A DNA stretch of 64,000 nucleotides from Eledone cirrhosa (Eukaryota), in contig OZ024742.1 of assembly GCA_964016885.1 (NCBI GenBank), positions 216,814,001 to 216,878,000 on the forward strand. The letters run 5' to 3'. Every line of letters begins with the position of its first letter. Position 1 is the first letter of the stretch. The position numbers and the translations under genes are program-made. Positions 4,111 to 56,360 of this stretch are shown here, one piece after another. The notes below the pieces were generated by a model. It ran no database searches. It was given only the letters and a program-made list of their open reading frames with translations, and was not told the origin of the DNA.

Positions 4111-4403
4111 ACGATATTAAACAAATGGAAACTATATTTATAAAACCATATTTATTTCATTATACATATTTCAGGGATACCATATTAAAAATATGGCATG
4201 CCTTCGTCAGATAAAATACAATATATAAACAGTTTTATAAATAATTTTGACGTACCATAAATATAAGCGACCATTAAATATAGTTAAATATAGTTTCCAT
4301 TTGTTTAATATCGTATATCGACTCCAAAAACTTGTCGAGTGCTTTATATCAGTTATAAAATATTTACTTGTTGTAACCCAACAATTTTAAATAAAACTTT
4401 TGC
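4111..4403 (-). mobile_element. PLE terminal-repeat remnant with inverted repeat, between (TA)n tracts
   Basis: acgatattaaacaaatggaaactatattta (4111) is inverted at about 4285-4314. Contains an HHR. Confidence 0.7.
4153..4218 (-). ncRNA. Hammerhead ribozyme motif (type I, minimal stem III)
   Basis: Minus strand: tattttat CTGACGA aggcatgccatatt-ttt-aatatggtatccct GAAA tatgta TA atgaaata. Stems I and II pair well. Confidence 0.75.
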
Positions 4404-4458
4404 ATATATATATATATATATATATATATATATATATATATATATATATATATATATA

Positions 4459-4625
4459 GGAACGAGTAGGACCCCGACGGCTGAGCTCATGCCGTTTCGA
4501 CGGCTAATTCTGGACTAAATGAAAATGTTTATCCTGTCCACGGGATTACCCACTCTACTACCCTAAGTATTGAGTACTTTGGTGCGTTATGGTCCATCTG
4601 GTTCCTTACCACATTTCCTTCGTTA
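4459..4625. mobile_element. Short PLE-type repeat in (TA)n; same family as 48885-49086
   Basis: 4546-4625 is the reverse complement of 48885-48964. gacggctgagctcatgccgtttcgacggct is also shared. Confidence 0.7.
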
Positions 4626-5826
4626 TATATATATATATATACACATATATATATATATATATATATACATATATATATATATATGTATATATCTGTATAT
4701 ATATATATATATATATATATACATATATATATATACATATACATATATATATCTGTATATATATATATATATATATATATACATATATATATATACATAT
4801 ACATATATATATCTGTATATATCTGTATATATATATATATATATATATATATATATATATATATATATATATATATATATATATATATGCATGTCTGTGT
4901 AAATAGATAGATATATATATCTTTGTGTGTATGTGTTTGTGTATGTGTGAACATGTTTATGTGTGCCTAAATGTGTGTCTGTATGCGTGTACGTGATAAT
5001 TTGTTATGCCACTCTTAACGCCTTTAAAATTCGTTATTTTACGTGAAATATTTCAGAACCAATTAAATATCCTTAATTGTTTATAAGTTGTTTGCCTTGT
5101 ATTTCTATAGATGTCTCTAAAACTCTTTATATATATATTCCGCATTGCATCAACAACACACTTTTACATACACACATACACACACGCACACACACATACG
5201 GACACACACACACACACACACACACACATACACGCACACACGCACATACACACAGGCATAAATATATATATATATATATATATAACAAAGGAATATATAT
5301 ACATATATTCATATATATATGTATATACATGTGTGTGTGTGTGTGTGTGTGTGTGTGTGTGTGTGTGTGTGTGTGTGTGTGTGTGTGTGTACTATATATA
5401 CAATTGATGCACCTTGTCAATGAGAACAAAACTGACAGATACAAGTTAATTTACTCAACACTTGTAGTGTTCATTTTACTTTAATGGTATATTAATTTGA
5501 CAGAATCGAAGCGGAAAAGTCTCAAACTAGTATATATATATATATAGAGAGAGAGAGAGAGAGGGGGGGGGGGGGGGATAGAGTATATATGTATCTGTAT
5601 AATCATGTCTCTGAATATATGCGTGAGTATGTGTGCGTGCACGTGTTTCTGTAAATAAATATCTATACAAAGGGCATTTCATTTGCTGTGTCCCCATAAT
5701 ATTGTCATATTACATTAAATATTAACAAAACAATATTTAGCAACGTAACTTTGTTCGTAAATGTTTATGTTTTCAAAGAGTATGACACGATTTTTTTATT
5801 AGATACAATTTTGCTATTAATTACAG

Positions 5827-5905
5827 TGCAGATGAGCGAACTGAAGAACACCGAGAAGCTCTTATTGTCGTCAGGTCTACAGGAGCTATAGTGTGGATGC
5901 CCCAG
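5827..5905 (+). CDS. nAChR alpha-type subunit, extracellular-domain exon (first exon visible; 5' exons not found in the window)
   Basis: ttacag|T GCA GAT...CCC CAG|gtaat. Encodes (x)ADERTEEHREALIVVRSTGAIVWMPQ, the segment after the loop-A 'YN' motif. Ends in phase 0 and joins the 26249 exon to give WMPQ-VIYKSSC. Not in the ORF track. Confidence 0.88.
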
Positions 5906-6067
5906 GTAATATATAAAGAATTTCTTCTTTTTGACAATCTGTCTTTCTCATATTTCTATGTATAAGTAATGTATACATACAAACGTAATATATTGTCATA
6001 TATCGATATATATATATATATATATATATATATATATATATATATATATATATATTTATATATAAAA

Positions 6068-53302: not shown

Positions 53303-54169
53303 ATTTCTAGAATGTTTACAGTTCTTTATATACTGTCTTCAAATCACACAGAAACAGACTTTGCTTTTCATCCTCCTGGGATCAATTAAATAATATACTT
53401 GTCAAGTATTGTAACTTATTCAATTCCCTCGCCTTTCCCCCTCCAAATCTGTGGTCCCACGATTCTTTTAGAATCTACTGGTCAAAAACTGTAAATCATG
53501 CAATTGTAAACAACCTCGAAAGTTTTTATAACTTAAAGCAGGCAGTGACCGTGACTATGATCACCACGAGGTGTTTATGACTAGTAAGATCGATGTGGCT
53601 GATGTCCAGCTGAAACAGCTGTAAGTTGATAAAATCTATAAAAATAGTGTGGCTGAATAGGAAGTAAATTTGTAAAAATTGGTTGTGAAGCCTGTGTAAA
53701 ATGTGATGAGATACGATATAGATGACAAGTTGATTGGTAACAAGTAAGGTCGAAATAGCATGCAATTAGAAATAGGTCAGAAGTAGATTAGCTATTTACG
53801 GATAGATGTTCACATTCCGAGCGAACTAACCAGTTCGAATATTTCGTATGATCATATGTTGATTGTAACGGCATATAATATAGAAAGTGTCATTCACAAG
53901 AATATTAAGACCGCCTTCGTAACTTGGTCGTCTTCTCCTCTACTTCATTCCAGTTCAGCAAATCAGCTCATGATGTGTCGGTTTTTGCTCCTAAAACTTC
54001 AAAGTGTCTCGGTCATCTAGTATGATTAATAATGGGTGAGCAGGTTAGAACACATTGAAGTGAAATGTGCATATGTGTGTGTGCGTGTGTCTGTGTGTAT
54101 AAATGTGCGTGGACGTATGTGTAAGGGATAGACGGTGGGGGTGAGAAAAGAGAAATGTAGAGTAATAGA

Positions 54170-54308
54170 GAGAAAGAAAGAAAGAAAGAAAGAAAGAAAG
54201 AAAGAAAGAAAGAAAGAAAGGAAAAAGAATGAAAGAAAGAAACACAGAAAGAAAAAAAGAAGGAAAGAAAGAAAGAAGGAAAGAAAGAAAGAAGGAAAGA
54301 AAGAAAGA
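54170..54308. repeat. (AAAG)n microsatellite
   Basis: Direct reading. Confidence 0.95.
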
Positions 54309-54997
54309 TAAACTAAGGCGAAGATGACAAAGATAGGCAGAAAAATGGGGAAAGGAGGAAACTTTCTTTCCATAAATAAATAAGTGGCGAGTGTGACCAA
54401 ATAATTCCAACTAAAATTAATGTCGCATTAAATCACAACAGCAGTTGATCATCATGCTCGTAAATGACAAAAATGAATTGTGTATCACTTCGTTAGATTT
54501 ACTTTATTCAATGTCTTGTTTATTCTGTTGTTCGAAGAAATATTGGTTTCTATCCATCAGAATATTTATAGGGATAAGGAAATATATTGGAATATTAATT
54601 AGATCATAAATATTTATGCGCAACACGGCTTATATTAGAATATCTGAGACAAATTTAACGTAACTATAGCTACAGTTTAAAATTATAAACCTCGCTGTGA
54701 AAACGTAAACAAATTTTAAAATATTTCATTATTCTCTTCATATACAAACAAATAGAAGGATTTTCTTTGCATGTTTCACAGGAAATTGATATTTCGTTAA
54801 AAGACAATTAATCATACCCCTTCCCTTACGAAGAATATTCATAGCATATCGCTTTTCACATAAAGCACAAAACAGGAGTTAACTGAAATGGCAAGTTTAA
54901 TTTTCATAACGTGCATTTGGTGGTGATGTAATTCATTAAGAACCCCTATCCCTCCACTCGTTATATTTTTCTTAAATTTTCTTAATGTACTTTTTTT

Positions 54998-55245
54998 TCA
55001 CCCACTTATTCCGGAGAGGGTCGTGGGGGGAAGAGTCCTCAAATACTCCTTTCAGTGAGTCATGTCAGAAGAAACTGTCTCCAATTGATCCGGCTGGATC
55101 CCCAGGAGTGACCAACCAATCTCATGGATGTTATCTAACCATCTTGCTCGAGGTCTATCCCTGGGTCTCCTGCCGGTTAGTTTTGCCCGTAAAATCTGTC
55201 CAGTGATTTTTTCCTGAGACATTCTAACCACACGCCCATAGTATT
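54998..55245 (-). mobile_element. LINE (RTE-like) 3' end
   Basis: Homologous to 18300-18590. Confidence 0.65.
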
Positions 55246-56000
55246 TTAATATACGTATTTAGTGTAAATATTATTTAATCAACTACCTTGCCAACGGATG
55301 CATATTATGCAAATTAGATTAGACATTAAGTTCTAGTTCGTATAAGATACAAATAACGATTTGTTATAATTACTCTCCTTGGGCGAACTAATAAGAAAAC
55401 TTGTCTCCTCGCGAACAACAAACAGGCAGTTAAATGGCAGAGTCACTATGGCGGAGAATAAAAGGTCTTTCGGTATTCGCTCCCGTCTTTCTGCATTCTG
55501 AATTCAAATCCTACCTTTTGAGGTCGATACAACAAATTGCCTATCCAGGATTGTAAATTGGCGGAATTTGTTAGAGCGTAGGAGTTGCCTTATGGCATTT
55601 GTTCCGACTTTTTGCAAATCCTATTGTCACATACTTGGTTGATAGACTTAATCCGTTGCCTTGTGCTCACCATCATCTGGCGATTTTAGCGAAGTCCACT
55701 CTGTTACAAGTTGACTTCTTTAAGGATTTGAACTCATTTACACAATTTTATCTTCCATTGAATCTAATGTGACTGGCATATTTCACATTTAGATTCCATG
55801 GAATAAAACATAATTACAGCAGCTAAAATCTGGTTTCCACTAAAGATTTTGTTATTTCTATTTGAACTTAGAGACGTAAACTACATACCGTAAGGTGTTC
55901 CGTGTGGTCCTGTTTCTTCCACTGGTTGAACTTCATATATATGTGTGTATGTGTATGTATTAATTTATATGAGCGTATGTATATATATATATACGAGTTG

Positions 56001-56360
56001 ATATATATAATAGTAAAAAAGAAAAAAGACAGTAGAAAATGCTAAAAGGATTTTCTCTCAGAATAACAGCAAAACATTTATTTACAAAATAGGAATTTCC
56101 GCATTATTCGTACTGGTTTCAGGTTATAGGCTTCTTTTTTCTATATATATATGTATGTAAAAAAAATGTTTTCCCATATTCTTATTGATATGCAATGTAA
56201 TTGCATTATACACTTCCATCGCATGAAGAAGTCTATAAGCTGAAACCGGTACGAATAATGCGGAAAATCCTATCTTGTAAATAAATGTTTTGCTGTTATT
56301 CTGAGAGAAAATCCCTTTAGCATTTCCTACTATTTTTTTTTATTTTTTACTATTATATAT
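56001..56360. mobile_element. PLE-type remnant with about 125-bp inverted repeats and a degenerate sense-strand HHR
   Basis: 56001-56126 versus 56226-56360 (reverse complement). tcg CATGAAGA ag..ct GAAAC cg GTA cga at about 56219-56254. Confidence 0.75.

Follow-up and report, generated by a model that had tools for sequence, protein, structure and literature searches.

The hammerhead motifs in the introns of the window (the whole 64-kb stretch of DNA analysed here) are genuine and belong to the ends of Penelope-like retroelements (PLEs), a known kind of element, and copies on the sense strand are broken no more often than those on the antisense strand. We consider it probable that PLE termini on both strands are near-neutral, the one-sided split in the window being a small-sample draw and the mild antisense excess being ordinary retroelement bias.

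The introns of the window belong to a plus-strand nicotinic acetylcholine-receptor gene, and PLE hammerhead ends are abundant in them. The host exons in the window are:

5827..5905, plus strand: nicotinic receptor exon, ligand-binding domain
26249..26624, plus strand: exon with the Cys-loop, the vicinal Cys and M1 (PF02931, PF02932)
27630..27713, plus strand: exon with M2, bounds approximate
44241..44356, plus strand: exon with M3, bounds approximate
56757..57803, plus strand: last coding exon, encoding the intracellular loop with M4

Further host exons were found 6.4 and 12.6 kb before the start of the window, and the motif at 4153 is thus intronic, as the earlier note on this DNA had presumed. 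That note had listed seven intact cores, all on the minus strand, against plus-strand copies that all carried defects. Its positions 4153, 28843, 30090, 31026, 37691, 41630, 35985 and 56219 coincide with stem I ends, and 7892 falls inside the motif at 7883-7933. The core letters CUGANGA, GAAA and NUH were indeed present in all seven, but all three stems were found in four only; these passed the three-stem descriptor (4153-4218, 28843-28901, 31026-31107 and 41630-41672). The antisense copies are:

4153..4218, minus strand: minimal hammerhead of type I whose core and three stems are intact; helix III is an imperfect palindrome
7883..7933, minus strand: core letters intact, first stem I pair mismatched, U.U at 10.1-11.1
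15642..15709, minus strand: antisense copy broken at U4 (CCGAUGA)
28843..28901, minus strand: intact hammerhead of type I in which helix III is palindromic, with G10.1-C11.1
30090..30199, minus strand: intact core letters; stem II is long and, by eye, lacks its closing pairs; failed the structure descriptor
31026..31107, minus strand: intact hammerhead of type I in which helix III is a true hairpin
31523..31558, minus strand: copy of the U3-A8 covariant family, GCAA instead of GAAA
37691..37823, minus strand: intact core letters; stem II is very long and, by eye, lacks its closing pairs; failed the descriptor
41630..41672, minus strand: intact minimal hammerhead, extra base between A9 and 10.1
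49275..49312, minus strand: hammerhead of the U3-A8 family with a lesion at U16.1, on an inverted terminus adjoining a PLE ORF

The 4153 hammerhead has an inverted tail copy at 4275-4318, and the sense partner of 37691..37823 (38413-38536) is truncated and broken. From the modelled folds, 31026..31107 is the window's best candidate for monomer activity, and the GAAA and stem III of 7883-7933 are predicted to be trapped within a fold-back hairpin (-55.9 kcal/mol). Broken antisense copies in the window number at least six; the three already described as degenerate (about 15650, 31525 and 49274) carry CCGAUGA, GCAA and U16.1 lesions, respectively.

No intact plus-strand hammerhead of type I, II or III was found in the 64-kb window using the structure descriptor, so within the window the split stands (4:0 when structure is required, 7:0 on the core letters); it does not hold outside it. 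The plus-strand defects are also real, but had been partly misread, since four of the seven (37343, 47555, 49038 and 56219) belong to inverted (fold-back) insertions, in each of which the minus arm is likewise broken or cut short. The sense copies and fold-back insertions are:

32821..32855, plus strand: broken sense arm of the inverted pair 31404-31667/32686-32975, absent from the earlier list
35985..36061, plus strand: sense copy broken at U4 (CCGAUGA)
37344..37358, plus strand: 3' half only, inversion junction in place of the 5' core, inverted part upstream
41323..41381, plus strand: sense copy with GAUA for GAAA, without stem I
47422..47611, no strand: fold-back insertion, plus arm without 5' core (inversion junction), minus arm tail only
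48968..49076, no strand: palindromic fold-back without orientation, same GAAA half at 49034 (plus) and 48994 (minus)
52394..52478, plus strand: old full-length sense copy with a long stem II and a core substituted at two positions (CCGUCGA)
56001..56362, no strand: fold-back insertion, both arms broken

The CCGAUGA lesion is common to 35985 (plus) and 15650 (minus), and the inverted partners 31523-31558 (minus) and 32821-32855 (plus) are both broken. In the fold-back at 56001..56362, the plus arm is 56219-56254 (CAUGAAGA), and the minus arm (56108-56136) lacks the 5' core. An assembly artefact as the source of the palindromes was rejected, since their arms differ (72-95% identity).

The attribution of the hammerheads to PLE terminal repeats, made in the earlier note, was supported by ORF linkage and by insertion structure. 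The window holds one such ORF:

49423..50962, plus strand: frameshifted Penelope-like ORF, RVT_1 then GIY-YIG

ORFs related to it end 1.13-1.19 kb before a hammerhead of the 49275 type at four loci. A same-strand hammerhead was present at most 1.2 kb downstream in 19 of 56 GIY-YIG loci, compared with 8.6 expected. The GIY-YIG-to-hammerhead distances recur per family, and this linkage covers several families, not each window copy. Opposite-strand hammerhead pairs were divergent in 67 of 68 cases. We also observed 5' truncation and inverted 5' copies (including the window fold-backs), tandem units and microsatellite-flanked ends.

The hammerhead descriptor gave 230 matches in 1.82 Mb of intron, far above chance, since the reversed and complemented control strands of this DNA gave 8; 220 copies were structurally intact. 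Helix III was short, with at most one monomer pair beyond A15.1-U16.1 in 175 of the 220 (31026 in the window being an exception), and the 10.1-11.1 pair was family-dependent (G-C in 54, U.U in 73, A-U in 44). Type II and III folds were found neither in the window nor in the controls. None of the best 150 of 212 Rfam matches for the window was to a hammerhead model; microsatellites and palindromes had given rise to them as look-alikes of miRNAs and other RNAs. Rescanning 28780-28960 with Rfam gave no hammerhead, and a rescan of three loci gave none at the gathering score. A repeat search of the window was dominated by microsatellites.

We surveyed 1.95 Mb of intronic DNA from 39 genes. The descriptor was relaxed to admit families closed by U.U and those in which an extra base follows A9. 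Eight unsupported descriptor matches and two singletons that probably arose by chance were not used as seeds. Two singletons were omitted from one count, and copies spanning neither core half were dropped. Thirty 3.5-kb ion-channel loci were excluded from the scan because many flank single-exon matches and their gene extent is uncertain. A genome-wide pattern search gave 87/90 matches, compared with 88/86 for the reversed-pattern control; as it was at control level and carried no gene orientation, it was used only for locating the window and viewing families.

Outside the host gene we observed 116 intact sense and 158 intact antisense copies, and intact sense copies were present in 29 of the 38 genes other than the host. 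The systematic search of both strands proposed in the earlier note also located an intact sense core in the host gene itself. This copy lies at G000:C3:216813772-216813818 (L140:2372-2418), 183 bp upstream of base 1 of the window and in the same host intron as the 4153 motif. As a generalisation, "intact only antisense" is therefore not tenable. The sense copy is of one family with the 7883-7933 hammerhead, and sequencing-run contigs matching it showed that this family is very abundant, without confirming the locus. Among the sequencing runs, no RNA run was listed as containing the stretch that was queried. Its predicted fold is weak, which we counted against our main reading. It brings the intact copies of the host gene to one sense and six antisense. 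Tandem, dimer-competent arrays of intact cores were seen on both strands, six sense (19 copies) and seven antisense (26 copies). The chance of the window's one-sidedness was P=0.11 for 0 of 4 and 0.021 for 0 of 7. None of the 28 bins of 30 kb with at least four intact copies was without a sense copy, so the window is unusual; this too was counted against the main reading.

Selection had been proposed to disable the sense copies. We observed that the broken share and the core substitutions were equal by strand, and that decay was symmetric. Among full-length copies, the intact and broken numbers were 116/54 for sense and 158/58 for antisense (Fisher p=0.31; p=0.42 with the host included). Core substitutions amounted to 55/1656 (3.3%) in sense and 54/2057 (2.6%) in antisense copies (p=0.24). 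Where both arms of an inverted pair were full-length (n=73), 42 pairs were intact in both arms, 8 in the sense arm only, 11 in the antisense arm only and 12 in neither. Copies below 14% divergence gave sense:antisense ratios of 23:34 when broken and 91:118 when intact (p=0.76).

We propose that introns hold hammerhead-bearing terminal repeats from many Penelope-like families on both strands. As a lone minimal hammerhead is predicted to be a poor cleaver, the copies probably persist as debris that is close to neutral. In the available text of PMC4209133, a single S. mansoni minimal hammerhead showed no detectable cleavage, and self-cleavage of such motifs is described as low in the monomer and higher in the dimer. 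Introns cut by a slow hammerhead were still spliced, as recounted from the work of others in a passage of PMC2995048. Target-primed insertion with 5' inversion would place one arm on each strand, and the 5' core may often be lost through truncation or at the inversion junction, which would explain several of the "broken" copies. Since intact sense copies are present here and in most genes, the 4:0 (or 7:0) of the window probably reflects an extreme sampling of few copies from a mild antisense excess (58:42), and not selective disabling.

The mild antisense excess itself (about 58:42 to 60:40) is real. The gene-flip p was 0.0009 for copies and 0.0045 for events, and the excess was replicated in four fresh genes (4 sense, 12 antisense). 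Events intact on one strand only numbered 63 sense and 95 antisense (binomial p=0.013), as against 49:48 for broken events, and core-less truncated (solo) ends were balanced, at 162 sense and 163 antisense. The claim that selection removes sense copies may survive in a weak form only: among core-bearing copies, the sense orientation is reproducibly short by about a quarter to a third. The link of the excess to an intact core is borderline, with p from 0.02 to 0.43 over the tests: 0.038 for intact versus truncated ends by strand (0.048 for closer matches), and 0.022 for intact versus broken when all copies are taken and truncated ones are counted as broken.

The excess would most likely be ordinary orientation bias, arising from a terminal-repeat promoter, splice signals or insertion preference, and not from cleavage. 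For the splice-acceptor-like AG seen by eye at stem I in some families, the family counts gave no consistent skew. A poly(A) signal as the cause was not supported (36:40 with the signal, 55:89 without), and PLE ORF fragments were without antisense bias (30:24); both results were counted against the ordinary-bias reading. Biases of similar magnitude were seen in repeats chosen independently of hammerheads, towards antisense in LINE fragments (4:18) and towards sense in a tRNA-type SINE (94:60), which speaks for the ordinary-bias reading. A microsatellite skew was also present on the sense strand (AC 287 versus GT 216); it was not connected with the direction of insertion.

Weak purifying selection by self-cleavage is an unlikely alternative. 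Here a working sense core would occasionally cut the pre-mRNA, a quarter to a third of new core-bearing sense insertions would not be fixed, and the survivors would stay un-disabled. The skew of one-strand-only intact events beside balanced broken events and solo ends speaks for it, as does the same direction in myosin (10:16), Cys-loop (48:66) and channel (1:9) genes. Selection at the insertion stage also predicts a skew in young broken copies, which was seen, and the available part of a related report describes retrozymes as depleted from Xenopus introns (bioRxiv 10.64898/2026.07.22.740005). However, the interaction tests were fragile (uncorrected p=0.31, 0.12, 0.022 and 0.038), and removal of three AT-rich families gave p=0.33. 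Tandem sense arrays persist, and core-bearing copies retain more of the terminal repeat, so that other signals are confounded with the core. Nor did the excess follow a gradient in predicted competence (strong monomer helix III 10:10, G10.1-C11.1 27:27), and the predicted folding cost was equal between strands (p=0.91). Copies with two extra helix III pairs numbered 7 sense and 18 antisense, which was counted against our main reading. That minimal PLE hammerheads cut host pre-mRNA in vivo, giving a 25-35% sense deficit in core-bearing intronic insertions only, we hold to be doubtful. Very improbable is the earlier strong model, in which selected core mutations remove or disable sense copies genome-wide or in this receptor gene: it draws on the 0 intact sense against four to seven antisense copies in the 56.7 kb of window intron, on the host total and on the 28 bins, but it has against it the intact sense core in the same intron, the 116 intact sense copies elsewhere, the symmetric decay of inverted pairs, the four plus-strand defects that are fold-back arms with broken minus arms and the broken antisense copies of the window, and its genome-wide form is refuted on sequence grounds.

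The near-neutral PLE termini favoured here resemble the minimal hammerheads of metazoan PLE pLTRs, as described in the available text of Cervera and de la Pena 2014 (PMC4209133). Both are type I with a short palindromic helix III, an extra base after A9 and U3-A8 core covariation, and both comprise many heterogeneous families, mostly as solo copies of truncated elements. Dual motifs on opposite strands, about 100-700 bp apart, are also described there. In contrast, long inserts in stem II are seen in many of the present families, and U.U stands at 10.1-11.1 in 73 of 220 intact copies in place of the G-C that is given as conserved there. An orientation-in-intron analysis is absent from the results and discussion of that paper, as available. 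The 5' truncation, partial tandems and inverted 5'-truncated copy are as in the PLE insertions of Craig et al. 2021 (PMC8557442, in the parts available); in the new clades of that study the endonuclease precedes the other domains and hammerheads are mostly missing, whereas the window element has the canonical RT-then-GIY-YIG order. Tandem hammerhead repeats in other introns here are like the non-LTR retrozymes of the accessible text of Cervera and de la Pena 2020 (PMC7229834), whose units are head-to-tail and 170-400 nt long; unlike these, the window copies are solo or inverted. The tandem arrays in other introns of the same genome have periods of 310 bp and about 466 bp, and no tandem intact copies were found in the host gene. 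The conserved intronic ribozymes of amniotes are single-copy and sense-strand; unlike these, the copies here are multicopy transposon ends. The likeness to them (intronic hammerheads and CPEB3; PMC4836649) is that the motif lies within an intron of a protein-coding gene.

By title and start of abstract, no literature was found on hammerhead or ribozyme orientation in introns, most subscription journals being outside the coverage, and none was found on U3-A8 hammerheads in introns. On Penelope hammerheads in octopus, PMC8557442 alone was found, and "antisense" and "orientation" are absent from the available text of the bioRxiv report.

Together, these observations add a dense and diverse set of PLE hammerheads from one animal genome, with intact and even tandem sense copies tolerated in the introns of conserved genes. 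If the sense deficit were due to cleavage, a simple genome-wide test would answer whether metazoan minimal hammerheads act in vivo. Population genetics would then testify that ribozymes supposed to be nearly inactive do work in cells, the fold-back pairs and truncated ends serving as built-in controls.

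The window (C3:216814001-216878000) lies inside a plus-strand nicotinic acetylcholine receptor gene of the 3.0 Gb genome, whose exons were placed as follows:

C3:216801218 and 216807488 (contig C3): two host exons upstream of the window
26249, plus: host exon, PF02931/PF02932 Pfam matches
near 5827, 27630, 44241 and 56757, plus: other host exons

By eye, the exon ending near 216807643 read through in frame into the 5827 exon. The hammerhead at 4153, presumed in the earlier note to be intronic, is thus intronic indeed, and the plus strand is the pre-mRNA sense throughout. The receptor's M3-M4 loop contains a long Gly/His/Ser-rich low-complexity tract (56757-57803). 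At C11:23.6-23.9 Mb, on another contig, we also observed over 20 Cys-loop genes clustered in tandem, with the ligand-binding domain within one long open frame, an arrangement that we take to resemble the cephalopod chemotactile receptor expansion.

The core letters reported at seven minus-strand sites were found at all seven, and four of these passed a three-stem type I descriptor:

4153-4218, minus: type I hammerhead
28843-28901, minus: type I hammerhead
31026-31107, minus: type I hammerhead
41630-41672, minus: type I hammerhead

A fifth minus-strand match (40687-40766) scored low and is probably due to chance. At 7883-7933 (minus) the first stem I pair was mismatched and the 3' half was buried in a predicted fold-back hairpin, while the stem II closing pairs were missing at 30090 and 37691 (minus). 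On the plus strand, type I, II and III descriptors gave no intact motif in the whole window. Within the window the all-antisense split thus stands, at 4:0 when structure is required and 7:0 when the core letters suffice, but it does not hold beyond it: the same gene has an intact-core sense copy 183 bp upstream of the window start (C3:216813772-216813818). This copy and 7892 belong to one family; the upstream copy has the better stem I of the two, although it is predicted to fold weakly.

The defects described for the plus-strand copies are present, but several read differently here. At 37343 and 47555 (plus) the 5' core was gone at an inversion junction, 49038 was a palindrome with an identical half motif on each strand, and 56219 (plus) was the arm of a fold-back whose opposite minus arm (56108) was broken too. 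The U4C change in sense copy 35985 was also carried by antisense copy 15650. Two further broken sense partners, 32821 and 38475, were absent from the earlier note. The minus-strand copies 31525 and 49274 belonged to a U3-A8 covariant family, with one extra lesion apiece; this variant is described in PMC4209133. More fold-back palindromes with diverged arms were seen at 47731-48864, 36152-36490, 6263-6432, 18785-18942, 39174-39241, 52629-52771, 63026-63143 and 29233-29737, and probably come from the same inversion mechanism.

The window hammerheads are terminal repeats of Penelope-like elements (PLEs), as had been proposed. An RT and GIY-YIG ORF at 49423-50962 had an inverted hammerhead terminus on its 5' side, and at four loci an ORF of this type was followed, after 1.13-1.19 kb, by a hammerhead of the 49275 family. 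In the sampled introns, a same-strand hammerhead lay at most 1.2 kb downstream in 19 of 56 GIY-YIG loci (8.6 expected). Opposite-strand hammerhead pairs were divergent in 67 of 68 cases, matching the inverted 5'-truncated PLE layout reported in PMC8557442. The motif features agree with the PLE minimal hammerheads of PMC4209133, where dual motifs on opposite strands are also reported and a single S. mansoni motif gave no detectable cleavage. A pyrimidine-rich stretch and AG directly at the stem I 5' end, seen in several families, is reminiscent of the Penelope intron: PMC4209133 places the 3' end of that intron in helix I. The motif class is already known, and the copies add members to it from a further genome. 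Of the 220 intact copies in the sampled introns, 73 had U.U in place of G-C at hammerhead positions 10.1-11.1, and these came from several families that are not related to each other; the U.U pair is also seen at 7883-7933 and in the sense copy upstream of the window (L140:2372-2418). This may be the 'extra base after A9' feature re-read, or an undescribed variant. Variants with a long stem II occurred as well. U3-A8 covariation recurred in several families (UUGAAAA, UUGAUAA, UUGACAA; window 49275-49312 and other loci), some of which have a GUC site together with a helix III that is stable in the monomer. Decayed ORF fragments, presumably LINE-like and GIY-YIG-like, were seen in introns at 21532-25330, 33067-35187, 36587-37042, 2332-2823, 1084-1359 and 16904-17338; a Pfam search of four decayed pieces gave no matches.

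We then have the census of intragenic DNA between ordered exon matches in Cys-loop, myosin and ion-channel genes (main set 1,816,750 bases, 35 genes including the host; replication set 129,600 bases, four more genes). Gene extents were set by Pfam exon matches rather than annotation; any bias would be diluted by nested genes or by exons paired wrongly. With a relaxed descriptor, 94 matches were sense and 136 antisense, against 8 on control strands, and these served as BLAST seeds to collect copies, whether intact or decayed. The full-length copies found in genes other than the host were 116 intact and 54 broken in sense, and 158 and 58 in antisense (Fisher p=0.31). Core substitutions were 55/1656 in sense and 54/2057 in antisense (p=0.24). 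In 73 inverted pairs the two arms were both full-length; of these pairs, 42 had both arms intact, 8 the sense arm only, 11 the antisense arm only and 12 neither. Intact sense copies were present in 29 of 38 genes other than the host, and tandem arrays of intact cores, a dimer-competent layout, numbered 6 sense and 7 antisense, including a sense pair between firmly matched myosin exons (L012:5621 and 6088). Retrozyme-like tandem arrays with a 310-bp or ~466-bp period were seen in introns at four sampled loci (L095, at C3:142107301-142146600; L109; L012; L036), and in one array 7 antisense units were followed directly by 6 sense units.

A mild antisense skew was left. Intact copies were 58% antisense (gene-flip permutation p=0.0009), and insertion events with an intact core ran 63 sense to 95 antisense (binomial p=0.013, flip p=0.0045), with 4:12 in the replication set. 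It was absent from broken events (49:48) and core-less truncated solo ends (162:163). The contrast between core-bearing and broken or core-less copies depends on the cut and is borderline (uncorrected p=0.31, 0.12, 0.022, 0.17, 0.12, 0.038, 0.43, 0.33, 0.069 and 0.048).

We favour, with fair though not strong confidence, near-neutral PLE ends on both strands and a non-catalytic cause of the skew. PLE ends on either strand, fold-back arms and symmetric decay were observed; the core-less arms would stem from 5' inversion and truncation, both frequent at insertion. Single minimal hammerheads without a partner cleave slowly (PMC4209133), and exon tethering lets slow but not fast intronic cleavage be tolerated (PMC2995048, relaying others' work), so most intronic copies would be near-neutral. 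The skew did not follow predicted cleavage competence across helix III, closing-pair and folding-cost classes (sense:antisense 10:10 for strong monomer helix III, 7:18 two-pair, 74:101 dimer-only, 27:27 G-C closing; folding cost p=0.91). Biases as large occurred in other repeats: one group of LINE fragments, which we take to be RTE-type, ran 4:18, Tx1-like LINE fragments 11:11 and PLE ORF pieces 30:24. A tRNA-type SINE, its strand assigned by A/B boxes, ran 94:60 in favour of the sense strand of the host genes (p=0.008), the reverse of the usual bias; it is abundant (~270 sample loci; window 2140-2330, 7080-7300, 43260-43530).

Weak cleavage-driven selection at insertion is a possible but doubtful alternative. 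Young broken and intact copies were equally skewed (23:34 and 91:118, p=0.76) and copies more than 14% diverged were balanced (37:36), a pattern compatible with either an insertion-stage filter or a family or age effect. The strong claim of the earlier note, that selection removes or disables sense copies, is very improbable and, judged by sequence, refuted by the intact-core sense copies in the host and elsewhere, the equal broken fraction and the symmetric pair decay. Against our own reading, the window stands out as unusual (P=0.11 for 0/4 sense, 0.021 for 0/7; none of 28 bins with at least 4 intact copies lacked a sense copy), but it had been chosen for its all-antisense pattern. The strand census may be new; it points to a modest effect on PLE ends that are probably near-neutral in these introns.
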